Assembly (NCBI GenBank): GCA_965237955.1
Contig: OZ250169.1
Coordinates: 5,504,001 to 5,568,000 of the forward strand
DNA length: 64,000 nucleotides
DNA from: Candidatus Marinacidobacterales bacterium
GTDB taxonomy: Bacteria; Acidobacteriota; Vicinamibacteria; Marinacidobacterales; SMYC01
Direction of reading: 5' to 3'
The notes beneath the pieces were generated by a model. The model was not told the DNA's origin, searched no databases, and saw only the letters and a program-made list of their open reading frames with translations. Position 1 is the first letter of the stretch; every line of letters starts with the position of its first letter. Shown piece after piece: positions 34,277-54,468 of this stretch. A program made the position numbers and the translations under genes.

Positions 34277-34505
34277 TCACCGAATTACGCTAGCCCATGT
34301 TTCCCTTTAGGTCTCTAAGTCATCCAAAACAAAGGATCGGGATCTGCCGTTTGTTCACTACAACTGACGGATGCTCCTTTGAGAAAGGGCTGGCGGGTCC
34401 TTACTTTCAGAAGTACATACTACGTAGGTAAGAGTAGCTAAGTGGTCTTCACCGAAGCCGAAAAAGAGGCGCAGAAAATCAAACTAGACCACTAACGTTT
34501 TTTCC

Positions 34506-35952
34506 GGAGGTGCCCCCACCATAGTTGAAGGTTCGAGGTGGTGGCGGCTCCTGACACATGGTTTACCCGACTTTGGCGTGCTTGTCGAGCGCTTGATTCT
34601 CAGTGACCTCCGCTAACTTCGCTTCGAGGATCGGTAGCGATTGGTATCCAATGATACGACGGAAATTTTTCTCCGTGGCGAGCAGAGCCGAAGCGGCCCA
34701 TCTCAGAACCATCTTGCCATTGCGCCAGCGGGTGACGCGAACGGGTACGACCTCGCGCACCGCTGAAGCACGACTCGATGATGTTCGTCGATCCAAGGCA
34801 GCGTTTCAGAGATGCGGGGAGGTCGAGCTCGTTGATGGTGAACATCTCGTCGAGCCCCTCCCGGATGCTCTCCGCCGCCGAGGGGTAGTCGTCCTCGAGC
34901 CACTTCGCCTGTTGCTCCAACCGCGCTTTGCCCTTCTTTGCTGGGAGCTGCCAGGCCGAACGCAGGCTCGCTTGCACTTGCGGCTTCAGCTCCTGCGGCA
35001 GATAACCGAGCACATTGCGCTCCTTGTGCTTCCTGCAACGCTGGACCTTGTTGTGGGTACCGAACACAGCGTCGACGGCGACCCGTAGCGCCTTGGAGCC
35101 ATCGATCACGAACAGCCGACACCGCTCTGGGCTCAGGCCTCGTTCGACCAGGTCCTCCAGCAGCGCCTTGCACACTATCTGGTTCTCCGATGCTCCATCC
35201 CGAAGCCCCAGAACATGCTTGTATCCCTCTGTATCTACGCCGATTGCCGCCAGCGCGTGGTGCTCGCCGAAGCGAATCCCGTCCAGGTACACGACCGCGA
35301 TCTCCAGCTCGTCCAGCGGACGCTCCATCAGCCCCTGCAACTGCTCCGCGCTTGCTTCCACGAACTCACGGCTCACCTCGCTCTTGCTAACCCCTACCGT
35401 CTCCGCCATCTCGGGAAGAACCGACGCGTACTTGCGCGTCGACACACCCAGCATCAGGATTTCCCAGATGCGTTGGCTCAGCCGAGACGAGTTGTTCACC
35501 GCTTCGTAGGCAGGAATCGCAACCTCCCCTCCCTCTGCCTTTCCCTTACGCCGCAGACGTGGCCGGCTCACTCTCAACTTCCGCTCCGCAAGGCTTACTA
35601 CGCCACCCTGCCGGCCGTGCCAGCGAACATCGCTACCCTTCTTCCCCGGGTGTTTCTCCCCAGCCACACTTTGGGCTGACAGATCCAAGACCGCTTCGAT
35701 CGTCGCTCGGCCAGCAACGTCGATCACTTCGTCGATCGCTATCTCGGTTCGCTCAATCGCATCCAAGAACGGCAACAGAGCTTGCCCCTTCGAGCTCAGT
35801 ATCTCTCGAAGCTTCTTCCTGTTCTTCGCATCGATGATTTGGTAATTTGACCATCGTGGTGGCTCCTTTCTTTTTCCTTCACAGCCGGATTCTATCGAAC
35901 CCGGCCTTAGGAGCCGCCACTCCTAACCTTCAACTATCTCAGGGGCATCTCC
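34506..35952 (-). mobile_element. IS256-family insertion sequence, 1447 bp, 8-bp TSD TTTTTTCC
   Basis: IRs GGAGGTGCCCCCACCATAGTTGAAGGTT / GGAGATGCCCCTGAGATAGTTGAAGGTT; TTTTTTCC at 34498-34505 and 35953-35960. Confidence 0.92.
34563..35854 (-). pseudogene. IS256 (Mutator) transposase with frameshifts near 35845 and 34745
   Basis: 'GVSTRKY', 'VYLDG', 'GASEN', 'FVIDGSKAL', 'QRCRKHKERN', 'STNIIES'; C-terminus 'RVTRWRNGKMVLRW' in ORF 34563..34796; GAAAGGAG RBS before ATG 35854. Confidence 0.9.
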
Positions 35953-36114
35953 TTTTTTCCATCGGGTTTTGTTGCAGACGCGACGGGTGAGCTCCTCGAC
36001 TTCGATGGGATTTCCCCCCCAGGTGCGTTGCCCAATCCCCTCGGCTTGTGAAGGGACCCTCCCTGTAACTCATTGTCCATAAAAGCGATTGCTGGAAATC
36101 CCCGGTCCCGGCCC

Positions 36115-37194: not shown

Positions 37195-39822
37195 ATGCGC
37201 GGAAGCCTGACCCCAGATGACCTCGCGCGCGTCCTGCGAGGGCTTGCGGTAAACCGTAAGGAGGGGATTCTTCATCTCTCGAGCGACGGTGTTTCCAAGC
37301 GCATCTACGTCAGCGGGGGCTCCATTATCTTTGCCGGCTCCGACGACGAGCAGGAACGCCTCGGAGAGATCCTCGTCCGCGCGGGCAAACTTGAGCGCAC
37401 CGATCTCGAGCTCTCCTTGAAGGTCATGAAGGAGACCGGAGAGAGTCTCGGGACAACCATCAGCGAAATGGGCTTTACCTCACCCGCGGACATAGCAGCG
37501 CACGCACTCGAACGGACGAAGTCGATCATCTGTTCGCTATTCGCTTGCTCGTCTGGAACCTTCTACTTCGAGGAGCGCGCGACGGGCGTCAGCGAAGACA
37601 TGGCACTCGAGCTCTCGACCCACGAGATGATCCTCGAGGCGGCTCGCAGTATCAAGCACCCTGAGCTCGTGCGGCGAGGCCTCGGCGATTTGAAGGCCGT
37701 ACTCCGCCAGCCACCCAACCCCCTCGTCCCCTACGAGGGGGGGAACCTGAGCTCCTCCGTCGATTGGATTCTGTTCCAGGCGAACGGCGTTTCCACCATG
37801 GAAGAGATCGTTCGAAGCTCGCCTCTTGACGAGGACAAGACCCTACTATCTATCTACGCCCTCGTGCTCGCAGGGATTTTGGAAGTCGAGAACCCAGAGA
37901 GAGCGCTGGCTGCGAGAACCGACGCGACCAAGGTGACTTTCGGGCAACACGGACCGCCGCCACAGAGCGCCTCGTCCACCTCCGGCACCGACGAGCTCCC
38001 ACAAAAACTCGGGCGGTACGAAGTGGAGAGACTCCTCGGCCGCGGGGCCATGGGGGCCGTTGACCAGGCGCGAGACCCCGCAATCGACCGAACGGTCGCG
38101 ATCAAGCTCGTGCAAACTGCCGTGCAGCTAAGTCCTTCGGAGCTCGAAAAGTACCTGGAACGCTTCCACCGAGAAGCGAAGGCGGCGGGAAAGCTCCTCC
38201 ACCCGGGAATTGTTACCGTCTTTGATGTGGGGCATACGAACGAGGAAACACCCTTCATCGTGATGGAATACGTTGAGGGAAGGACGCTCCAAGAGATCCT
38301 CGAGTCCGAGAACCTCGAAACGGACGAAGTGCAACGCCTTTCGGTCGAGATCCTCGAGGCGTTAGCCTTTGCTCATTCGAACGGAATCGTTCATCGGGAC
38401 GTTAAACCTGCGAACGTTCTCGTGACCGAGGAGCGTCGAATCAAGATCATGGATTTCGGCATCGCACATGTTGTGGGCTCCGAGTTGACTCAGGCCGAGG
38501 ACGTTATCGGAAGCCCCAACTACATGGCCCCAGAACAGCTCTCCAAGGGAACTATCGACCCCCGGACCGATCTCTTTGCGTTCGGAGTGATGCTCTACCG
38601 AATGCTCACCGGCACGCTACCGTTTGTGGGCGACTCCTTCGCCGCCATCGCGCAGGCTATTCTTGTTGAGGAGCCGCCACCGCCGTCGAGCGTCGACCCC
38701 GCGATTCCGGACCACCTGAGTAATGCTGTCGTTCGCTGCCTCGCGAAAGACCCCGACTCACGTTTCGTGACCGCCGACGAGTTGAAGCACACATTGCGAC
38801 ATCCGTCCGGTGACGGCATCGCCGCGGACAACGAGATGGTTTCGTCCGAAACCAGAGCGGGGGTCCCTACCGGAGAGAGCTCGAAGATCCCCAAGGTCGC
38901 CGACGTTCCGGTCGAGCCGCTTCAGAACAAACGCAAGAGCCTCTATTTCGGATCGGCTGTTGCTGCATCCATTGCGGCCGCTCTTTTTGTAGTCTTTGCC
39001 TTCTCAGGAGGAAGATCGGAGGAGAGCGTCTCTCCGGAGCCACAAGCAACACCCCCGGAGGTGTCAGGACGGAGCCCCATTCCCGACGAGCCCCCAACGA
39101 GCTCGGACCCCTTCGATACGGCAGAAGAGTCGAGCGAGACAATACCCGAACAACCAAGCGATGCCGAGTTCTATCACCAAGCCAGTATCGCTTTCGAGCG
39201 GGGTGACCTCGACGCCGCCAAGGCGGCTCTCGAAGAGCTCGTCCGCAGCAATCCTGGCTTCGAGGGAGCTCCCGAGCTCCTCGTCAAAGTGAACGAGCAG
39301 CTCCGCAACGAGATACGAAGTCCGGAACGCGAGCCAACACCGGCGGCCCCGCTCGAGCCCAAACCCACCGCGGCACCCACCGAAGCCGAGCTCTTCTACC
39401 GGGCAAGGCTCGCCTTCGAAAACGGAGACCTCGAGGGTAGCAGGGACCAGCTCGAGGCACTTCTACGAACCAACCCTTCCTTCGAAGGCGCCTCTGAGCT
39501 CCTCGTCACCGTCGACGACGAGCTCTGGAAGAAAACCTTACCCTTCTCGTACCGTGCCAAACACAATCACCGCCTCGGTAGCTGCACAGGCACCCTGAGT
39601 CTGGCAGCGTCGGGCATTCGATACTCCTCGAAGGACCACGAGTGGAGCTGGGATTTCGATGCCATTCGGCTGATGGACCGTGACGGGCGCAGGGTCCTCA
39701 ACGTTGAAACATACGAAACAGACGTTTTGGGACTGGGCAAGCCCAAGAACTATCGATTCGAGCTGCTGCGTGACTCACTGCGGCACGAAGACTGGATGAG
39801 GTACCAGCGGTTGATGCGGTAG
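37195..39822 (+). CDS. Hanks-type Ser/Thr protein kinase with N-terminal DUF4388-like domain, TM helix and two TPR-like repeats
   Basis: 'LGRGAMG', 'VAIK', 'HRDVKPAN', 'DFGIA', 'YMAPEQ'; duplicated 'AFE.GDL......LE.L.R.NP.FEGA.ELLV.V'. Confidence 0.92.
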   Translation: MRGSLTPDDLARVLRGLAVNRKEGILHLSSDGVSKRIYVSGGSIIFAGSDDEQERLGEILVRAGKLERTDLELSLKVMKETGESLGTTISEMGFTSPADIAAHALERTKSIICSLFACSSGTFYFEERATGVSEDMALELSTHEMILEAARSIKHPELVRRGLGDLKAVLRQPPNPLVPYEGGNLSSSVDWILFQANGVSTMEEIVRSSPLDEDKTLLSIYALVLAGILEVENPERALAARTDATKVTFGQHGPPPQSASSTSGTDELPQKLGRYEVERLLGRGAMGAVDQARDPAIDRTVAIKLVQTAVQLSPSELEKYLERFHREAKAAGKLLHPGIVTVFDVGHTNEETPFIVMEYVEGRTLQEILESENLETDEVQRLSVEILEALAFAHSNGIVHRDVKPANVLVTEERRIKIMDFGIAHVVGSELTQAEDVIGSPNYMAPEQLSKGTIDPRTDLFAFGVMLYRMLTGTLPFVGDSFAAIAQAILVEEPPPPSSVDPAIPDHLSNAVVRCLAKDPDSRFVTADELKHTLRHPSGDGIAADNEMVSSETRAGVPTGESSKIPKVADVPVEPLQNKRKSLYFGSAVAASIAAALFVVFAFSGGRSEESVSPEPQATPPEVSGRSPIPDEPPTSSDPFDTAEESSETIPEQPSDAEFYHQASIAFERGDLDAAKAALEELVRSNPGFEGAPELLVKVNEQLRNEIRSPEREPTPAAPLEPKPTAAPTEAELFYRARLAFENGDLEGSRDQLEALLRTNPSFEGASELLVTVDDELWKKTLPFSYRAKHNHRLGSCTGTLSLAASGIRYSSKDHEWSWDFDAIRLMDRDGRRVLNVETYETDVLGLGKPKNYRFELLRDSLRHEDWMRYQRLMR

Positions 39823-39845: not shown

Positions 39846-40250
39846 ATGCACGATGCCGCCGGCCAAGCGGTGAGCGCGTTCATCATGATCTCGATCTTCG
39901 GCGCTCTCGGCGGCCTCGTCATGACCGCGCCCCGCATCATCTACGCGCCGGCATCACAATACAAAGACAGTGAGCTCGTCCCCCTGCAGCTCATGAACGT
40001 CGCGACCGGCGCCGCTGTGTTCCGCCTGAGAAAGCGCTCTATGGAAAATCGCCACAACGATCAGTATTTGACGCCCGGCTATCCGGTCGTGCCGCTCGTC
40101 TTCATCGTCGTCATGACGCTCTTGATGGTGAACGCGGCAGTCTATAACCCGCTTGATACGTTCATCGGGGCTCGCGCTGACCGCGCTCGGACTACCCGTT
40201 TATCTTTGGATCGTGAGAGGGAGCGCCGGGTCACCGAAGAGGTGATAGAT
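39846..40250 (+). pseudogene. APC family amino acid permease remnant with internal deletions
   Basis: 'IMISIFGALGGLVMTAPRIIYA' and 'AVFRLRK...YLTPGYPVVPLVFI' with intervening helices missing. Confidence 0.65.
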
Positions 40251-40832
40251 GGCGATGAGCTCCGGCATGGCGCCGGTGTCGGCGAAGCGCTCCTGGGCCT
40301 TGAGCACGGCATCACCGATACGGCGGTGGTTTCCGTTCACGAGCTCTTCCAAAAGGATCTCATGGTAGCGGTGAGCGGGTCCGTCGAGACTGAGTCCCGT
40401 GGGTGAGAACGCTGCGATGGCGCCTTTGCCTTCAGCCTTCACCATTCCTTCCGCGAGCGAGTCGAAATACGGAAAGTGAAAGAATCCGTTCAGACAGTTC
40501 ATCGTCAGCAATATCGGCTGCTCGGCTTGAGGCGCCAACGCGTCGATGTCCCCGGTGTTGAACACGTTCTCGTCCGCCCACAAGTGAATTGCACCGTGAC
40601 CCATATAGCTTACTAACGTTGCCCCGTTGTCGAGCGCTGCCCGCACTTCGCTCCGAACACCGGACGTGAGAAAAAATCGCGTTTCCCAAGGGAGATGGGG
40701 ATGGTTGGTCCACACTTCTGTCAACTAGGGGGTCGGGTCCGCGCGGTACGGATTCACCCGATATCGTATCGGCGTTTCGTTGGTGCGTATTGCTAGCGCT
40801 TTAACAAGTCGGGCTGCGTGTGCTCAACGCGC

Positions 40833-42399
40833 TCACGTCGGCACGAGTGTCGATACCATCTTCGGCCTCCAGCGGAGGCGAATCCACTGCAAGATATCGT
40901 AGGTGAGGGCGACCCACAGAGATTCAGTGCGCACTTTGGCGACTCCGCGCACGCTAAACTGCCGCAGGCCGAACTTGGTTTTGATCCAGAGATTCGGAAA
41001 CTCGGCCACCTGCGAGCGTGTCTTATAGATGGCCTTGGCTTCGTCGGTCTGCATCTTCTTCCGGAACGCGGCTATGTCGGGCAAGAGTTCGCGCCGCTCG
41101 ATCGAGCGGCCGTGCTGCGTACGAGGACAACACTGCTCTTTGGCCGGACACGTCTGGCAGTCTTGCTTAGACGCCTTATATCGATAGCGCATCGTGCCAT
41201 GGCTTTCCTGCTTGGCGTCGTAGCGTAAGTGCTTGCCCTGCGGGCACACATACGTGTTGGTCTGCGTATCGAAGACAAACTTCGACGCCTCGTATTCCGC
41301 TTTCACGCCGTGGTGCTTATACGACTTGCGCCGATTGGCCTCTGCTGCCTTGTTCTCGTGGTCGGGGCCGACGAGATCGATGCCGCGCTTCGCCATCTCC
41401 GCGATGTTGTTGCTACTAATGTAGCCTCCATCTACGACCATCTGCTCGGGCCGCACGCTGCATGCTCTGCTCAATCCGTTCTATGGCCGGCGTCAGCTGC
41501 TGATAATCGCTACCGGCCTGCGTGGCATCGATGTCGACAATCAGGCCGTGTGCGGCATCCGTTGAGACTTGGACGTTGTAGTTAGGTGCGGAGCCGCCCT
41601 CGGCTTGCTTCATCACCCGCGCGTCGGGATCGGTCGTGCTCACGCGGTCTATGCGGCTTTTCGCGGCTTTCAGCTTGTCATACTCCTTCAACGCTGATTC
41701 TAGACGATCCTGTCTCTCTCGCCTGGCGCGTTGCTGCGCTGCCTGCATCTGCCGGCTCGATTCCTCCTCCGTCTGGGCGTTGAGAGTCTCTACCGCCTCA
41801 CGCGCCTGCTCCAGACACTCTTCGACCGTCGGCTTGCGGCGAAATCCACTCGACGAAGCGTTCGCGCGCACCTTCGTCCCATCCAGCATGACTCGCTCGA
41901 GCGTGATCAATCCGTCCGAACTCAGAACTCCCAGAGCTTGCACAAACAACTCGTCCAGGATCTCCCTATGAATCATCCGAAAGTCCGACAGCGTGTGCGC
42001 ACTGATGCTCTGCATTCCGCTGAGCCATTGATACGCCGGATGATGTTCGCACAGCCGCTCAACCGCGCGGGCCGAACTCACGGCTTGGCTGTAGCTGTAG
42101 ACCCACAGGCTCACCAGTAGCTGAGGATCAAACGCAGGCCGGCCTGCGCCACCCGCGACCGAGCGGACTTGATCCGTGTACCCGCTGAGATCCAGCCGAC
42201 CCACGAACTCCCAGATCGCACGCGCTGGGTGATCCTCTGGGATCAAACGCTCCACGTCGACCGTCCGCAGCAGCAGCTGCGCCCTATCGACCACCTTCAA
42301 CCGAGCTTGTGTCACGCGCGCTCCCTCATCGCCGTCATCACCATCGCTGCGTTTTCGCGGACTCGGAAAGCCTGGAAGTGACGTTTGCTTATCACCCAC
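40833..42399 (-). pseudogene. IS1182 transposase (frameshift near 41450)
   Basis: 'LIPEDHPAR', 'GRPAFDP', 'LDGTKVRANAS', 'STTDPDARVMK', 'YNVQ', 'VDGGY', 'YVCPQG', 'RSQVAEFP'. Confidence 0.9.
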
Positions 42400-42595
42400 G
42401 TTTACCCCGCTTCCTCCCACGCTTTGCCTTAGGCGTCCGACGCACAATCAGTGTGTTTCGATCCTCCACCACCCACTCCAGCTCCTCGCCCGGCTCCATC
42501 TCTAGCGCCTGGGCTAAAGGTGACGGGCAAATCACATAGAACTGACGGGTGTCGTTGGCTCGCTTGATCACCTGCAGCTTTGTCACGTATCCCAT
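42392..42595 (-). CDS. AbrB/MazE/SpoVT-like small DNA-binding protein inside IS1182
   Basis: MGYVTKLQVIKRANDTRQFYVICPSPLAQALEMEPGEELEWVVED swapped-hairpin pattern with basic tail; overlaps the transposase GTG. Confidence 0.72.
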   Translation of the reverse strand: MGYVTKLQVIKRANDTRQFYVICPSPLAQALEMEPGEELEWVVEDRNTLIVRRTPKAKRGRKRGKRG

Positions 42596-45500
42596 GCTGG
42601 TCACTCTATAACATAGCTGCACCGCTAGTCAAGCTTAATTTTTTCTCACGTCCACCGTCGGGACCGAGGCGCGACAAGAACACTTTTTGCGTCGGGAACG
42701 GCGCGAGAACGCCGCGAGAGAGCTCGTCGGCGTGGCGCTCGAAATTGCCCGCTTCATCGGCGTCGTCCGCGACGAGTACCACCGAAGAAACTCCCGAAAA
42801 CTCGGTTCCTTCGTACTCGAGAATTTTCTGCACCATCACCCGTACGTCCTTGACCGTCGCCGCGGGCAGCCGACCGATGGCGACATCCGGCAAGAGATCG
42901 TCGCCGTTCACGGCCGCGTAGGCGGGATCCGACGCCGTCCACAGGTAGCTCGTGCGCACCATGACCGGCGGCACGTGATTGACCGTTCCCGTCCTCAGAT
43001 GGTCTTCGAAATCGTAGGTTCCATCTCCGAGAAGCACGACATAGCGATACGAATGTTTCTTCCATTCGTGATAGGCATAGCGTAGAAACTCTTGGATAGC
43101 TTCCGGTCTAGCCTCGCCGCCGAACGCTTGGTAGATATCCTCGGTCGCAACCGATTGCACTTTCAGCCCCTGCCTGCGCCGGTGCTCCACCAGCGGTCGT
43201 GCCGCATGTACAAAAGAGCGTGGTCCAACCAGAATCCAGTCGGCTCGCTTTCTTCTCAGGAGCCTCGAGCGGTCCACGCGCGAGACGTCGGGCGCGTGCG
43301 TTTTCTGGGTCACGATATAGCGGTGTCCTTCTTCGAGGCTGAATCCGGTGACCCAGCGCGGCGCCCCCTCGGTCGTATCGACGACCCACGAGGCCTCGAC
43401 GACAGCGGACTCGTGCCACATCCCATGAGTCTGCCCCTCGCTAGGAAGGCGCCGGTAGTCCACTTCGAATGCATCCAGCATCACGAGCGAGTAGGTAGCT
43501 TCGGTGTCTCCGACGTTCTCGACCTCGAAAACGTTCTCTCCTTCACGTAGCGTCCCCGTTGGCAGCTCGCCGTCGAGCCGGATCTCGTCTTTGCCGTCCC
43601 AGCGTCCCTCGGTCACGAAGATTCCGTTGACCGCAACGCGTACGTGGTGGTCCTCATCGGTCTCGAAGTCGCTCGTGCCTTGCAGCCAAACGCGTAGATA
43701 CGCAGGTCCCGGCGCGAGCCCCGCAACGTCGAACGTGTACTGCCTCGTCGCCGGTGCAAACAACGCGTCCCACAGCCACGGGTCGTCGCGGGCGACGAGC
43801 CCGGCCTGGTAGAGCAAGCTTTCCTCGCGCCGCTCGGTATGCCACACCGCCTCGGTTGATGGCCCCGCCGCACCCGACTCGAGGATCGACATCACCGTTC
43901 CTCGAACCCCGGATTCGAGCTCATAGATAGCACCCTCGCCCTCGCCCACGAAGAACAGCGTGCGGCCTTCGACGTGGAAGGGGACGTTCTCGCCGTGACG
44001 GCTCAAGCGAAGTTGTCTGGAGCGTGTGCGAAGCGGGTACGCGTAGAGCCCCGCCTCCGGTGTCGTCAGACGCCAAATCCTTTTGACCCGACGCGTTTTC
44101 GCCTGCCGCGCCGGCTTCTTGAACGCAAGACGCACGTAGAGCCGCGTGGCCATCGACAGCTCGTTGCCGTTCCAGTAAAACGGCGAGAGCTCCACGAGAG
44201 CTTTCTTCTGCTCTCCCTGAATCGCGACGTCCACGAGCTCGGCGTGTGTCGTCGAAGCTTCGATGCGTTTTCGTTCCCTCTGGCGAAGCCGCACGCCCCC
44301 ATCCGCGGTGGCGACCAGCTCGGCAACGGTAGCACCAGGTCGCAGGCTCGAGAACGCGCGCACGTCCCGCGTCCACACGCGTTTCAAGACGACGTCCCGA
44401 CCTTCGGTCGCGTCGACCCACGCGCGGTTCACCGGAAGCCCGTCCGCCTCGTCGAAGCCCGGGACGCTCAGCCTCACCCGAGCCGTCGTCGAGCGGCTCC
44501 GCGAAGAATCCCGACGTCTTCAGCTCGATCACGACGTAGTTGGCAGTGCGCTTCACGATGCGCAGGGCGTTCTCTTCGGGTGTGCCATAGGCAATCTGCG
44601 TTCTCGCTTGTTGCTCGGATTCGTCCGAGGCGTCGCCAAGCGTTACGGCGATGGGGCCGTGACGCTCGGTGCCGCCCGTCGTCCCGATGTCTTCGAGCTC
44701 GTAGTAGTACATCTTTCCTGTCGCCACACCCTCGTTGACGTAGCGATACGATGCGCCTACGGGTGAGGTCCCGAGCCCCGGTACCGGTTGCGCCGTCAAA
44801 CGCTCGAAGGGTCCTTCCGCGGACGTCGACCGATAGAGGTGGAAGCCCAGGTTGTCGAGCTCCGACGCCGTCTCCCATTCGACCACGACCCGGTCACCCT
44901 CGCGCACCGCGATGAACGAGACGAGCTCCACCGCGGTCGTCACTGCGAGATCGTCGGCGCCGATGTCCCAGAGGGTCTGGCGCAGCCCATCGTCGATGTC
45001 GTTGGTGAGAAACGCGCTCAAATCGACCCCGCTGTTCACGGCGTCGCTGCCGGTACGGATGTGGAAGTCGTTCGCGAGCGGGGCTTGGAACAAGGCGAAC
45101 GCCGTCTGAAGCGTATCAATACCGCCGCCGGCCGGACTGTGGGGGATTCCGGTCCCGTCGCCCGCCAGGTTGTTGCTGCTCGCTCCGGTGATCGTAGGCC
45201 CACCGCCGGGATCGAAATCGAAGTCGGCGACTGCGTTGTTGTACGCGATGTTGTTTTGAAGTGTCACCATCGGATACGGCCCCGTGCCGTCCCGCCCACT
45301 GATACCACGACCATTGTTGAAGGTTGTGTTGTTGAAAATATCGCCCTGCGTCACCGCCTGGCCGAAATGGATGCCGTCACCCGCGTTGTAGACGATGTTG
45401 TTGCACAGCTCGATGACTTGCGACGCATCCCTGATGCGAACGGCCTCATTGAGCTGGCCGTGAATGAGGTTGTTTCTCACCACCTGTTTATTCGTCGCAC

Positions 45501-47485
45501 CGATGAAGTCGAACACGATCCCACGACTTCCGTCGTCGATCTCTAGCCACTCGATCGTCACAAAATCGACTCTCGCGTTGATGGCCGTCACGCCCGGGAC
45601 GTTGATGACAGCTCCGTTGCCCGGAATCCCGTAGTGCCGGTTGCCGTCGTCAGCCGTGAGAGTGATGACATGGCTCGCGTCGGTGATGGGTCCATCCAGG
45701 TTGAAACCCGCGGTGAACACACCGTCGTCGTAGACGATCCCGACTTCGCTCCGGTCGTCGGCGACGAGGCTCGGGCTCGCCGGAGGAAAGAAGTTGCAGA
45801 AGGCGCCATTCGCCTCAATGCAGTTCTCCCAGTCGGACAACGCCGATGCAAGCCCGGTGAACTGGCGTGAGATCGTATACCCACCCGCATAGTTGCCGCC
45901 GCTCACGGGAGCCGTCAGCGTGAGCTGGGTGTTCGTATCGACCGAGAGGATCGTGTAATCGCTTGCGTTGATCTGGATGCGGTCGCCTCTTCCACGGTTG
46001 TTCACCCGCCATGCGGTGCCGATGCCGTAGACGACGGGCCAGCCGTCGGTCGCCACGATCGTGCCTGCCACGTAGTCGGCGGCGTTGCCGATGGACCGAT
46101 AAATCGTGTTCGATGGATTGAACTCGTCGGCCCCGATATCCCAGATTCCTGAGCTTCTCGACTCACCGTCGACGTCACAGCAAAAAGATCGTGTCCCGGC
46201 GTTGTCGATCGCTTCGGAACCAGATATCAAATGAAAGTTTCTCGCCGCGGTGCTGACGAACTGGAGGGCGGACGACCTGCCGGGAAAGCCCACGGCGGTC
46301 GCGTCGGACGACATGTTGTTGATCTGGGTCGTGACGTCCTTGAAGTCGTCACCGGTATTGTCCATCGCGATCGTGTTGATGACGGTGTAGGTGCCTATGT
46401 CCTCTTTCACGCCGCCGTCGACGGTCATGTTGTAGACGGTGCAATTCTCGATGAGAGCCGTCGTGCCTTCGTCGTGGACTGCCTCGAGGCTGTCGTAGAA
46501 GATGCTGTTGCGCAGCGTGAAGTTTGAGCCGCCCTCCGCTTTGATCCCAAAGTCAGCGTCATGGATGAGAAGGCGGTCGAGAACGACGTTGGTAACGCCG
46601 GGACTCAGCAGGATGGCCCGCTCCAACGTATGGTCTTCGAGCTCGAAACCCTCGATACGGGTAAAGTCCTCGAGAACGTTGATTCCGTTGGTCCCGCCCA
46701 AGCCATCGAGTAGGACGCCCGTGCCCGCGAGGCCTTTGTGTCCGTGGCCTTTGGCGACTGCGAGGTGCATGTAGTTGGTGGCGTTCGACGACAGCGTGTC
46801 GATGGTGACGACTCCGGTGAACGCCGGGCCGTCGTCGTACGCGACGCCGACCTCGGTGCGGTTCTCTAAGACCAAATCGCCATCGCGCGCACTCTCCCAG
46901 GCTTGGAGACCCGTGGCACCCGTGTACGCACGTCGGATCTCGTAGCTCTCCCCCGGGTGGCCTGCGGCTGCGGTTCCGTGGATGGTCACGAGATCGGGTC
47001 CGTTCACGGCGAGGATGTAGAAGATTTCCTGATTGCCGCCACCGGGATCCAAAGGTGAGCTGGTCGCCGACCCCGATCACGTCGACTGGCAGGTTCGGTG
47101 TCGTCAACGTGACCTGGGTTCCCCCAGCGCCGATCGTCGCCTCGCCAGCGCCGCCGGCATGCAGGATCCCGGCGTTCGTTCCGATGGAACGGTAGTTCGT
47201 TCCACTCTACGTCGGGCACGGGCACGTCTGTGCGGCGGCGTCGCGCCCCACGAGGAAACACACCGCCAGCAACAGTCCGGGTGGGAGGCGTCGGCTTTTC
47301 ATAATGTTCCGGGAAAATTAATGCAAGTCGCATGCTCAAAAACAAAAGCCTAAATCTCTGTGACAAAGAGACTTAGCGGAATTGGTTTTGGAAGGCCGCG
47401 GTGAAAACCCTACGGGCATGGGGATTATCCGACGACGTTTCTGAAATTCGTCTCTCACCCCAGCCGGATGCAGACTCGCCGGGCT

Positions 47486-47721
47486 ATGACGTATCTCAGA
47501 CTTTGCCTCGTTTTGATGCTGGTGGTCGCTGGCTGAGTGGCCAATCCGGTCCCGAGCCGGCCGACCTAGTGCTGCTCTACGGCAAAATCGTCACCGTCGA
47601 TGACGATAGGCCCGAGGCGCAGGCGCTCGCCGCAAAAGACGGCGTGATCCTCGCCGTCGGGAGCGACGCCGAGATCGAGCCCTACATCGGTGACGACACC
47701 CGCGTTCTCGACATCGAAGGG
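47486..47721 (+). pseudogene. N-terminal fragment of an amidohydrolase_3 (YtcJ-like) lipoprotein
   Basis: Signal peptide broken at the lipobox, then 'PADLVLLYGKIVTVDD..PEAQALA..DG.ILAVGS...TRVLDIEG', cut at the repeat boundary. Confidence 0.72.
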
Positions 47722-48348
47722 ATGAATAGGAACTTTGACCAAAACACCGTGCGTGTTGGAGCGAGATTGCGGGCTCGCGAGTGATGTGGGTGGGAAACGT
47801 AGGGATTGGAAGAGGGAATCGGACACTGGAAGGCTCGATGGCTATCGGGCGGTAGTTGGGCACAGAGGGTGCCCGGAAGCTGACGCGTAGAGTAGCGAAA
47901 ACGAAATACGGTTCAATCTCGCTTTGGCTCGAAACGTACCTGCAAGCCTCCGCTCGAGACGCGCGGGAGGTTCCTCAGGAAGAGAAACCACAGGAGCGAG
48001 TTCGCCAGCATCTCCAACGTTTCTTCGGCGGATCGCGAAAAGTGCTGGAGCGTGTCGTAGCCTGAGCGAGCAAAGCGTGCCTGAGCCCTTGCGTCGAAGT
48101 TGGTGTTCTCTGAGATATACGTGTGCACGTTGGAGCATGGTCAGGCTCGAGACCTTCGAAGAAGTCCAGCACCACGGCGAGCGCGAGACAACCGATGGCG
48201 CTCACGAGCACGAGGCGCGATGAGCGGGTATCGAGCTCCTTCCACAGGAAGACGAGCATGAACAGACCGAACGCGCCGAAAAACGGTAAGAACAGAACTT
48301 GCCACGTATAGCTCGGAAAAGAGGCCAGGAGAGCCGACGAGTCTTCTT
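47722..48348. repeat. Copy 1 of a ~627-bp direct repeat (3' half of a membrane protein gene plus downstream DNA)
   Basis: About 97% identical to 50260-50887 by manual comparison, with a 1-nt indel near 48130. Confidence 0.95.
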
Positions 48349-48349
48349 C

Positions 48350-48759
48350 CGGAGGAGGTGGCGAGGTCCCGTTCGTGACGACCTTCACGGGTCAGGGGTT
48401 CCGCGTCCTTCCACACGTGCAGGCGTCCCCTCTTCTTCGTCTTCCGGACGATTCCTTCCTACTGCTCCCGACGCGAGCGTACGATTTCGACGAGAGCGCT
48501 CCACGAATTCCAAGGGATCGGGCTTCTTCAAGGTGTCTTGATCGAGCACTGGGCTGGACGGGTCGCTGTCTTCGGCGAAGCTGCGGCCTTTTCCGCCCAG
48601 ATCCAGGAACGGGAAGCAGGCCCGTACCCTTTCGGCATGAATAACCCTGCCTCTCCGCACAACGCTCGGTTTCTACTGAACGTTATGGGTTGGCTATCGG
48701 ACGGAGAACACCTCCGGGTCGACGGCGACCGCGGCGTGGTGGCGCGAGTCGGTCGGTAA
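48350..48759 (+). pseudogene. C-terminal fragment of a DUF4350-like (GATase-like) protein
   Basis: 'TFTGQGFR...PLLRLP' then, after a frameshift, '[15 protein letters not shown]...[22 protein letters not shown]'. Confidence 0.62.
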
Positions 48760-49986: not shown

Positions 49987-50259
49987 TGGGCGGCGTGAAC
50001 CGGAACTGACCGTTGCTCTCGAGCCCTTCCTACTGCGAATAGAGGTCGAGGCTCAGACTTCGTGCCCATGACTCCGTCTCGAGCAGACGCTTGCGCTTTG
50101 CAATGGCGACGGCGAAACCCGGCACGCCCTCGATGCACTTGTTGGCAGACGACACCAGATAATCGATACCGGTGGCCTCGAAGTCGATCGGGACGGCACC
50201 GAAGCTTGACATCGCATCCACGAACGAGCACCGTCCGTGTTTGCGAACGACGGCGCCGA
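49987..50259 (-). pseudogene. phnW: Internal fragment of 2-aminoethylphosphonate-pyruvate transaminase
   Basis: 'VDAMSSFGAVP...SSANKCIEGVPGF...RSLSLDLYSQ*EGLESNGQFRFTPP'; TAG at the conserved Trp position. Confidence 0.78.
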
Positions 50260-50887
50260 ATGAATGGGAACTTTGACCAAAACACCGTGCGTGTTGGAGC
50301 GAGATTGCGGGCTCGCGAGTGATGTGGGTGGGAAACGTAGGGATTGGAAGAGGGAATCGGACACTGGCAGGCCCGATGGCTATCGGGCGGTAGTTGGGCG
50401 AAGAGGGTGCCCGGAAGCTGACGCGTAGAGTAGCGAAAACGAAATACGGTTCAATCTCGCTTTGGCTCGAAACGTACCTGCAAGCCTCCGCTCGAGACGC
50501 GCGGGAGGTTCCTCAGGAAGAGAAACCACAGGAGCGAGTTCGCCAGCATCTCCAATGTTTCTTCGGCGGATCGCGAAAAGTGCTGGAGCGTGTCGTAGCC
50601 CGGGCGAGCAAAGCGTGCCTGAGCCCTTGCGTCGAAGTTGGTGTTCTCTGAGATATATGTGTGCACGGTGAGAGCATGGTCAGGCTCGAGGCCTTCGAAG
50701 AAATCCAGCACCACGGCGAGCGCTAGACAACCGATGGCGCTCACGAGCACGAGGCGGGATGAACGGGTATCGAGCTCCTTCCACAGGAAGACGAGCATGA
50801 ATAGACCGAATGCACCGAAAAACGGTAAGAACAGAACTTGCCACGTATAGCTCGGAAAAGAGGCCAGGAGAGGCGACGAGTCTTCTT
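50260..50887. repeat. Copy 2 of the ~627-bp direct repeat
   Basis: Matches 47722-48348; this copy overlaps the intact gene. Confidence 0.95.
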
Positions 50888-51329
50888 TCAGTGTCTCGAC
50901 GGTGGTTCCGAGACGCTCGTGGAGCTCGGCGCCATCGTCGATGGCCATGTAGGTGAAGAATAGGGCCAAGGCGAGCCATGCTGCTTTCCACCACCGGGGC
51001 TTGGGCTGAGGCCTCGCGATGATGTAGGTGAACCACAGGGTGAGCGCTGCCAGGAGCGTTTGCGTCGTTCCCAACCACGAGGCCAGCCCGTCCTCTCGCG
51101 CCGTGTTGAAAAGCCGTCTTATGGCGCCGATGTTCGTCGCTCTTCCGTAGTTGACGTGGTAGTCGAGGAGAAAGAGCGCGAGCTCGGCGAGAACGCAGAC
51201 CAGGAGCACGCGGCGGGCCACACGCTCGGCATCCAACGACAGGATGACGGCGTGCGGCCTATCGGGCGTTGCCTCTTTATCAGCTGGAGGAGCTGTCGTC
51301 TGAGGAGTTGTCATCGGAGGAGTCGTCAT
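50451..51329 (-). CDS. Multi-pass membrane protein of unknown function
   Basis: About 6 TM helices with 'REDGLASW', 'MAIDDGAELHE', 'EETLEM' acidic motifs; start uncertain. Confidence 0.75.
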   Translation of the reverse strand: MTTPPMTTPQTTAPPADKEATPDRPHAVILSLDAERVARRVLLVCVLAELALFLLDYHVNYGRATNIGAIRRLFNTAREDGLASWLGTTQTLLAALTLWFTYIIARPQPKPRWWKAAWLALALFFTYMAIDDGAELHERLGTTVETLKEDSSPLLASFPSYTWQVLFLPFFGAFGLFMLVFLWKELDTRSSRLVLVSAIGCLALAVVLDFFEGLEPDHALTVHTYISENTNFDARAQARFARPGYDTLQHFSRSAEETLEMLANSLLWFLFLRNLPRVSSGGLQVRFEPKRD

Positions 51330-52213: not shown

Positions 52214-52351
52214 TTCGTCCCTGGCGCTTCGGCAAAATCTGACGTTGGGTAAGCGACTGGCTGCGAGAGATTTAGAGCGCGTATCCGTGCGCTCGCGTCG
52301 GTTTGTGATCGTGAGTGTCCAGAGAAACCCTACACGTCCGGTAATTGTTAC

Positions 52352-54070
52352 GCCTCTCCTGCCATTTCAGTGGATCCTCTCGAGGGTGAGACCGCCACAG
52401 TTTAGGTAGACGAGACTGATGAGAGCTTCGGCAGAGTGGAGTCCAAAGCTGCGGTGGCTCAGCAGCCGGATTTTGTTGTTCATTCCTTCGAGTCGGCCGT
52501 TGCTGAGTCTCCACGTGACCCACGCGATGACGCCATCGAAGTGGCTGCGGATCATCTTCGCCGCGCGTTTGACGGGCTCTATCCTCGAGCTCATAGCGCG
52601 CCGCAGCCATCCTCGGAGAAACTTCTTGGCCCATGTCTCGGTTTTGTAGGTGTAGAGGTCCATGAAGTCGTCGCGCAGAAGCATGGCGCGGTAGAGGCGA
52701 CGATTAGCTCGCACCTGCTCGCGGAGCACCCGTTTGTCTTTCGCGCTGCGGTTGTGTTTGGCCTTGAGAAGGGGAAACTTGGTGTTCTTGAGGTTGCGCC
52801 GGGCAGTCCCTTTGAGCTCGCGCACCAGCTCGCGCCGGGTCTTATCCACGGCCTCGTTCAGATGCTTGACGATGTGGAAGCGGTCAAAGATCACCCGTGC
52901 CTGAGGAGCCTTTTTGCCGACGACAGTTATGTACGGCTCCCACATGTCCATGCTGACCGCTTCGAGCTCCGCGGCTCTTTGTGGTCCGAGCTTGCGGAAA
53001 AACCGCAGCAGCGTCTTGGCCTTGCGCTCCTTTCCCGCCCAGACGACCCGGCCGCTGAGATGGTCTATTACCACTGTTAAGTACTTGTGGCGTTTGCGGT
53101 AGCTGATCTCGTCCATCCCAATCACCCGCAATCCATCGAGCTCGCGCCGCTCATCCCGCTGCTCGGCAACCACTCGCTGGATGATCCGTCGCACCGAACG
53201 CCACGTCACTCGGAAATAGTTCGCTACGGCGCTGACGTCCGTCCTCTGTGCCAGCCACGCTACCTCTTGTTCGAAGCTTTTGGTAAAGCGGCTTCCCTTG
53301 TCGGCCCAAGGCACCTTTTCTCTGACCACTCCACACCGCCGACATACCACTCGTCGGATCGAGTAGCGAAGATAGGTCCGGACTCCGAACAGGTCCAAGT
53401 GCCGCCAGTAGCGATTGTAGCGATCTTTGTTCTTGCGGACCTTTCGTCCGCAAATCCCGCACAGAGGCTTCCTCCTCCGTGGTACTACATCCACCACCAC
53501 TCTGGCTTTGTCCGCCTGGAAGTGGAAACCTCGGACCCACAGGCCTTGCAATCCGATGAGCTTGTTGACTAACGTAGTAACGCGCATCGCGGGAACGCTC
53601 TTTTCTCTTTCGGAAAAAAAGATTCTAGCGTTCTCGCCGATGCGCATCTACACATGGCTTACCCTCTCAACCCACGGGCCTCACCAAATGCCACTGCCCC
53701 TCAGCGGGAGACGAGGCTGTGGGAAACGCCCCCACGGTTCTGGTCGTTCAGACCTTGCTCACGACTGAGTTCTCTTCGAAGCCTGGAAGGGCGTTTTCCA
53801 TAGCCTCCACTAATCGAGCCCCCCCTTCCTTATTCCATATGAATTAATCTTTCTTGTATATATATCAGGAGGGGCCTGTGGGCGCTCGTGGGAAACGCGA
53901 AGCGTTTTCCAAGCGATTGTGGAAAACGCCGCTCCACGTTTGTACGTGCTCACAACCTTTCCCTAAACGCCTCTCTCGCCCGGAGTTTCCGGCGTTTTCC
54001 ACAATCGCGGCAGCGTCCATAGGCCATGCCCTCCAACACAAATCAGATCCCCCGAAACGACAGGAGAACC
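52352..54070 (-). mobile_element. ISL3-family insertion sequence, 1719 bp, 8-bp TSD ATTGTTAC
   Basis: IRs GCCTCTCCTGCCATTTCAGTGGATC / GGTTCTCCTGTCGTTTCGGGGGATC (19/25); ATTGTTAC at 52344-52351 and 54071-54078. Confidence 0.93.
52367..53587 (-). CDS. ISL3 family transposase (intact)
   Basis: Zn finger 'CGICG...CRRCG', 'IGMDEISYRK', 'VSMDMW', 'FDRFHIV', 'SNGRLEGMNNKI'. Confidence 0.95.
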   Translation of the reverse strand: MRVTTLVNKLIGLQGLWVRGFHFQADKARVVVDVVPRRRKPLCGICGRKVRKNKDRYNRYWRHLDLFGVRTYLRYSIRRVVCRRCGVVREKVPWADKGSRFTKSFEQEVAWLAQRTDVSAVANYFRVTWRSVRRIIQRVVAEQRDERRELDGLRVIGMDEISYRKRHKYLTVVIDHLSGRVVWAGKERKAKTLLRFFRKLGPQRAAELEAVSMDMWEPYITVVGKKAPQARVIFDRFHIVKHLNEAVDKTRRELVRELKGTARRNLKNTKFPLLKAKHNRSAKDKRVLREQVRANRRLYRAMLLRDDFMDLYTYKTETWAKKFLRGWLRRAMSSRIEPVKRAAKMIRSHFDGVIAWVTWRLSNGRLEGMNNKIRLLSHRSFGLHSAEALISLVYLNCGGLTLERIH

Positions 54071-54468
54071 ATTGTTACAATGTCGCCCCTTTCCACGGAG
54101 CGTGACCATGCACAAGTTTTCGGCTTTGTTTCTTCTTACGGCGGCATTCACCGGATGGAACACGACCGAGGCGATGGGGGCGTCGCGGCAAGTCTGTGGA
54201 GCCCCGATGACGATCCTCACTTAGCGAAGCGCCGTCGGGAGGCAGCGCGCAACGCGCGGGTGAACGTGTTCGCGTCGTCGCCCAGCTCATCGACGCATCG
54301 ACGGATGAGTGGAAGGCTTTCGGGCACCCGATCACGCTCCTAACACGGCGGAGCCGCAACCAACTTCATCAGCCCACTCGTGAATCTTCTTGACCGCGTC
54401 TTTCTCTGCGCCGCCTTTGCTGGACCATGAACCTCTGGTCATGAATCCCTGCTTACCTGCGAACATTT

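Follow-up and report, generated by a model that had tools for sequence, protein, structure and literature searches.

PorU, a C25-family protease belonging to type IX secretion systems (T9SS), cleaves exported cargo and anchors it to a surface amine. Its published cut sites have the consensus PT/GI in Prevotella intermedia (PMC11969387), and those of P. gingivalis follow X/(GSA)(VLI) (PMC4560394; PMC10202324; PMC5445135). The gingipains also carry a C25 domain, and RgpA and Kgp are described as self-processing protease-adhesin polyproteins (PMC5445135). Here we describe a C25 gene on the minus strand of a 64,000-nucleotide stretch of DNA (the window; contig OZ250169.1, positions 5,504,001 to 5,568,000) from Candidatus Marinacidobacterales bacterium. 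The window copy is a dead, transposon-interrupted pseudogene. Its intact relatives are abundant in Vicinamibacteria and combine a passenger, a fibronectin type III (FN3) domain that serves as the putative sorting tag, a gingipain-like prodomain and a PorU-like C25 protease. Comparison with PorU suggests that intact members cut themselves at a Thr before the tag and free the passenger without a T9SS, a reading to which we assign a probability of roughly 0.55.

A homologue search among longer proteins, with a length filter of 1,092-3,115 residues that favours fusions, gave 307 hits, 120 of which were listed. The tag was present in 120/120 listed homologues, 900-1,040 residues from the end (the truncated P0073 aside). 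Ahead of it stood unrelated passengers of some 100 to >3,000 residues, with beta-helix, LamG, DUF2341, FG-GAP, delta-60 and lectin-like domains among them. The expectation of the original prediction that passengers vary and linker and C25 stay constant was thus borne out among these proteins. The catalytic pair was retained almost throughout (His in 119/120, Cys in 118/120, the misses being truncated sequences), and PF01364 scored 220-274 bits in 18/18 intact relatives. As had been proposed for the window gene, no T9SS-type C-terminal domain (CTD) was recognisable: 117/120 listed homologues end 132-142 residues past the catalytic His motif. A signal-peptide-like start was seen in 68/120, against 5/575 interior controls, and none of the modules contained a membrane helix. 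C25 was found in 20/30 relatives' genomes, with 1 to 20 matches each, and tag counts tracked those of C25. In a quick version of the tree, which leaves out 20/62 rows, the 18 Vicinamibacteria fusions formed one supported clade, and pairing of tag and C25 recurred in several separate C25 clades.

The closest relative of the window gene, L067, has a 1,798-codon open frame. Its module was modelled at a pLDDT of 86.8 and a pTM of 0.82, with PorU as the best fold match, then gingipain prodomains (best Foldseek hit 6ZA2 over 773 columns; prodomain fold matches 4IEF_C and 5MUN). The prodomain profile of the relatives matched the prodomains of Kgp (E 4e-18) and RgpB (E 3.5e-13), and in intact relatives the match to NF033707 spans roughly positions 100-732 of its 1095. 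Next to the fused genes, no dedicated export or anchor locus was found; apart from insertion sequences (IS), only two neighbours recurred, a DUF4388 kinase at 8 loci and, at 6 loci, a response-regulator-like gene.

Further passenger, tag and C25 fusions exist that have no prodomain (P0197, P0208, P0233; L086:7241-12088; L109-L128). Some of these carry two tag-like domains, and one lies in a Myxococcales record.

The tag, its junction and its partner gene

Modelled alone, the tag adopted an FN3 fold with a pLDDT of 93.4 and matched FN3 domains at Z about 10. Its listed top fold matches were mostly FN3 domains, with no CTD structure among them, and no Pfam or NCBIfam model matched it. By profile, the tag is the same domain as the LPVEL domain that precedes T9SS type A/FlgD-like CTDs elsewhere (in the cargo of L082, in P0129 and in a cluster of the Atlas that has Por_Secre_tail), which agrees with the earlier description of the linker as typical of T9SS cargo; a search for CTD-bearing tag relatives returned the query alone. 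Against a representative library the tag profile gave 28,231 matches at 1e-10, a number that is not a family size because multi-repeat FN3-like proteins dominate it.

The residue before the first tag strand was Thr in 117/120 listed homologues, with Val two residues on in 119/120. The pattern [STND][GSA][VIL] occupied the junction in 91/120, compared with 1.6% per position in passengers, and in the L067 module model Thr-Ala-Val lay in coil directly before the first tag strand. Position P1 was S, T or N in 23/26 tags from distant loci, and Thr was kept in 21/21 fetched examples of the shorter prodomain-less fusions; among CTD-bearing examples Thr preceded the domain in only 2/7 (both sets read by eye). 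As a predicted cut site, the Thr|Ala-Val junction matches the published PorU cleavage consensus. A PT(A/N)x(V/I)-type motif with membrane helix and basic tail, and with no FN3 domain following, ends P0139, P0152, P0177 and L076:6265-7509. P0139, P0152 and P0177 gave no NCBIfam match, and the shared tail layout is a candidate unnamed sorting signal.

In Chloroflexota and Holophagae, tag and C25 are found as separate genes. Cargo genes in L075-L080 and L084 carry the tag at their C-terminal end or close to it, and lie upstream of a stand-alone C25; in L082, from a genome with SprA, the cargo ends in tag plus CTD. An even sample of the L077 phylum, Chloroflexota, comprised 120 genomes; the tag occurred in 15/120, and C25 was present in 15/15 of these compared with 2/105 tag-negative genomes, both with weaker scores. 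The two genes were neighbours on one strand in 8/15 tag-positive genomes. Across 150 genomes of the window's phylum, C25 was detected in 46/50 tag-positive genomes versus 21/100 others; in both samples the genomes are kin, and the counts overstate the pairing. Tag and C25 shared one open frame in 18/150 (hand-read from tables), mostly as the shorter type without prodomain. Separate cargo and C25 genes, an arrangement that the original prediction had counted against itself, thus do occur, but there the genes lie side by side and turn up in the same genomes, a pattern that speaks for a cargo/enzyme pair rather than against it.

Several features accompany the stand-alone enzymes. A radical SAM/SPASM gene stands between or beside cargo and C25 at eight distant loci (L074, L075, L079, L081, L083, L084, L096, L103), most of which add an HPr-kinase-like gene and either S26-peptidase genes or genes that we take to be nucleotidyltransferase-like. 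The set resembles the SynChlorMet cassette, below its cut-offs, and could build the anchor; as a cassette it was not found beside fused genes. Holophagae stand-alone C25 proteins (L074:2011-4344, L079:8567-11683) start with a lipoprotein-like box, LLTAC or LLAC, suggesting a membrane tether, and Holophagae cargoes end in the tag and an EF-hand/dockerin-like tail (labels by eye). In L091-L108, from Chloroflexota, many cargoes end behind their last domain in a short tail of the xLPLVxR type, as do the C25 enzymes that go with them.

Proposed mechanism and alternatives

In the mechanism that we propose for intact members, Sec would export the protein and the prodomain would keep the protease latent until it is outside the cytoplasm. 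The protease would recognise the FN3 tag of its own chain, or a sister molecule would do so, with cleavage after the junction Thr, and the acyl-enzyme would be resolved either by water, releasing the passenger, or by a surface amine, anchoring it as PorU does. Where cargo and C25 are separate genes, several tagged cargoes would share a single enzyme; in Vicinamibacteria each cargo carries its own. A membrane anchor is missing from the fused proteins, so the passenger would be kept on the cell only if a surface amine resolves the cut, and we give covalent anchoring about half the weight of self-cutting as a whole. A broader proposal is more tentative: a PorU-like C25 enzyme that reads an FN3 tag opening with Pro-Thr|Ala-Val and anchors cargo covalently to the cell envelope may form a widespread, undescribed sortase system outside type IX secretion. 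In Chloroflexota and Holophagae it would act in trans, and across Acidobacteriota it would take the form of self-anchoring fusions with one enzyme for each cargo.

The suggested independence from the canonical T9SS agrees with the profile searches. SprA was found in 0/14 related genomes and in 0/12 hosts of CTD-less distant loci; it was detected in 2/2 controls, namely genomes with a CTD on their C25 and with divergent SprA copies. PorV was found in 0/3 genomes, with positive controls. Secretin genes are present in the host but score below the GspD cut-off. GldM was not found either, though its control also gave no match, and PorK/L/N were not searched.

Several points weigh against self-cutting. 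The mechanism is drawn throughout from comparison, with cleavage and transpeptidation as its predictions. NF033707, the PorU model, reaches only 180-224 bits in 10/10 homologues, below its curated cut-off of 420; PorU's conserved Arg722 (PMC4560394) aligns with Gly in the family by sequence; and a prodomain is a feature of degradative gingipains. A small residue follows the Thr in only 3/21 short fusions. Generic FN3-like repeats are matched by the tag profile too, and tandem tags occur inside proteins, so that the role of the Thr might be structural. L089 and L090 lack a passenger and have the tag directly behind a signal-peptide-like segment, and the relatedness of the sampled genomes tempers the co-occurrence counts.

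Some of these points would also fit a different role, in which the family would be a gingipain-like feeding or attack protease, its passengers aiming it, its FN3 domain a spacer, and self-processing removing only the prodomain. The homology of the prodomain to those of Kgp and RgpB, the precedent of RgpA and Kgp as protease-adhesin polyproteins, the missing Arg722, and the lectin-like and beta-helix passengers would all suit such an enzyme, as would the common treatment of sediment C25 genes as degradative (PMC6752024). We nevertheless regard this role as unlikely: the PorU-like N-terminal region and the best fold match point to PorU, and the conserved Thr junction and the co-occurring, adjoining cargo and C25 genes would be left unexplained. 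The position of the RgpB aspartate, which we take to be the S1 residue, also lacks a conserved acid in the family by sequence alignment alone.

Somewhat less probable still is docking without cutting, in which the FN3 tag binds C25 non-covalently, fusion fixes the partnership and the Thr is structural. Tags without passengers beside the C25 genes of L089 and L090, many short tag-bearing frames in G059 and the tandem tags all agree with it, and the lipoprotein-like start of the Holophagae C25 could anchor bound cargo without any chemistry; the match to the PorU cleavage site, the kept catalytic pair and the tails with motif and membrane helix but no FN3 domain speak for cutting. Least probable is that the proteins are periplasmic and never cross the outer membrane, or that the profiles missed a divergent T9SS: export machinery is absent beside fused genes, and the host, 98% rather than 100% complete, has four weak Por_Secre_tail matches, but the best tail match is internal in an unrelated protein, the SprA and PorV profiles caught divergent copies in two controls and none in relatives, and the passenger types are typical of surface proteins.

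If self-cutting at the tag is correct, a tag/protease pair working without a T9SS would uncouple sorting from the translocon, and would do so in at least two other phyla, split as well as fused; the single-polypeptide version makes cleavage and transpeptidation directly testable. It would also change how C25 genes are read, which in one study of sediments (PMC6752024) accounted for >40% of the exported peptidases predicted. Under the broader, more tentative proposal, many soil and sediment C25 genes counted as degradative would be sorting enzymes.

The interrupted copy and its genome

The window gene consists of four minus-strand coding pieces running from 47302 to 40200 (87+855+607+152 codons). 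The original prediction had reassembled these into a protein of ~1,700 residues, and the match with the frame of L067 runs along its length (52% in tblastn, over 889 columns). The predicted start at 47302 and signal peptide were found again, together with the TTAVEL (44940) and WETASE (44877) motifs of the linker. The TAVEL domain opens with the proposed cut site, Thr(44937-44935)|Ala-Val. Both protease halves matched Peptidase_C25 above the PF01364 gathering score, and the second half keeps the two catalytic residues as claimed (GHG His 40598, MNC Cys 40496); the protein ends 5 residues past GDPAL, with no CTD. The tandem beta-helix passenger stands in so far as each of two repeats closes with a choice-of-anchor-Q-like WDIGAD (46143, 44970), but the best Pfam beta-helix stretch was reached by the second repeat only (2 stretches counted).

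Features of the C25 gene in the window (positions in the 64,000-nucleotide stretch)
Feature	Position	Strand	Description	Basis
Piece 1	47042..47302	-	ATG start, predicted Sec signal peptide (~47302-47231), passenger start	Alignment to L067
Frameshift 1	47041..47051	-	One extra base, near 47045	Alignment to L067
Passenger	44938..47040	-	Two related repeats of beta-helix character	Beta_helix E 1.3e-10; NF041518 E 4.4e-6
TAVEL domain	44644..44937	-	Predicted FN3 fold	Model and FN3 fold matches
Gingipain-like prodomain (Propeptide_C25)	44118..44589	-	Split by frameshift 2	Relatives' profile, fold match
PorU-like N-terminal region	43245..44075	-		Intact relatives match NF033707; Foldseek
C25 catalytic domain, first part	42654..43244	-		PF01364 positions 2-198, E 3.4e-41, 142 bits
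IS1182-type insertion sequence	40662-42653	-	1,992 nt, splits C25 catalytic domain	
C25 catalytic domain, second part	40200..40658	-		PF01364 positions 219-374, E 1.6e-30, 107 bits

Four lesions break the gene. Besides frameshift 1 there is an in-frame TAG at codon 32 (47209-47207), within a 7-codon stretch that has no counterpart in L067, a second frameshift near 44475 and the IS1182-type insertion. The element has perfect 16-nt inverted ends, a 3-nt GGT target duplication and a frameshifted transposase, the first piece of which alone scored 247 bits against NF033551 (cut-off 270, for a gene that is frameshifted here); DUF772 and DDE_Tnp_1_6 were also matched. At least seven near-full-length copies lie in the genome. 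An unbroken transposase frame was seen in only 1/8 aligned copies, and four of the other insertions flank a common palindrome-like sequence.

Short-read contigs of runs X1 and X2, from two studies, one of which may be the source sample, cover 42626-47400 with zero letter differences and zero gaps, and the other IS junction lies within a contig of X1. The lesions are therefore real, and long-read sequencing error as the source of the breaks is ruled out. In a shallow contig of run X7 one base is missing at 47051, that is, the extra base of frameshift 1 is not there. Cargo, linker and protease in one polypeptide, as originally predicted, thus holds for intact relatives but not for the window gene, from which the TAG, the two frameshifts and the insertion allow no single polypeptide. 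No RNA data set with the sequence was listed, which has no bearing on whether it is expressed. Being dead, the window copy itself adds little.

The host genome, one 8.13-Mb contig that is 98% complete, consists to ~15% of repeats of at least four copies, in 808 blocks. It contains 14 C25 matches at 11 loci, none with an unbroken frame from passenger to protease. All strong tag matches lie within C25 loci, and 6/7 tag-keeping loci have an IS inside, compared with 36-41% expected for random 5.1-6.5 kb stretches. In this lineage the family appears to be in decay. Among named loci, the closest come from Vicinamibacteria and bear, for the most part, the label Ca. Marinacidobacterales, which points to an Acidobacteriota host.

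Two further high-copy IS lie in the window, a Mutator-type element at 34503-35956 (up to 38 matches) and an ISL3-type element at 52345-54077 (up to 62). An intact gene with DUF4388, Ser/Thr kinase and TPR domains (37195-39822) converges on the C25 gene. Upstream of it, broken copies of a membrane-protein gene (47975-48388 and 50451-51329) form a partial local duplication, and a neighbouring segment is also partly duplicated (47566-47826 and 50053-50364).

Comparison with known systems

In the literature searched, which left most subscription papers outside, we found no description of the fusion family, and in the Haft preprint on sorting signals a term search did not turn up type IX, T9SS, gingipain or fusion. 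Like LPXTG/sortase A, PEP-CTERM/exosortase, GlyGly-CTERM and MYXO-CTERM, the tag co-occurs with an enzyme that can be its neighbour, and some proteins share the arrangement of motif, membrane helix and basic tail. The enzyme family differs, the usual tag is here a folded domain and, unlike in these pairs, fusion of cargo and enzyme is the rule in Vicinamibacteria. The LPVEL domain before T9SS CTDs is the same domain as the tag, but in the family no CTD follows.

With the gingipains RgpA, RgpB and Kgp, the family shares a prodomain and C25, and like RgpA and Kgp it joins passenger and protease in one chain. Its passengers are N-terminal, however, and a PorU-like region separates the prodomain from the catalytic domain. 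The C-terminal Ig domain and CTD of gingipains are absent, and Arg/Lys specificity has no support from the alignment.

PorU is closest in the N-terminal region and the C25 catalytic domain, including the ADNxD motif and the His/Cys pair, which aligned to both RgpB and PorU. In contrast to PorU, the family lacks the last third with the CTD, as the NF033707 match stops short, and has FSPSGL at the Arg722-aligned site in 91/111 scored homologues. It also carries a prodomain and its own cargo on one chain, and occurs in hosts without detectable SprA and PorV; its cargo tag is an FN3 domain rather than a CTD, and C25 has 1-20 matches per genome. Overall, we infer that the family works like PorU, yet by the criteria applied it is not a PorU.

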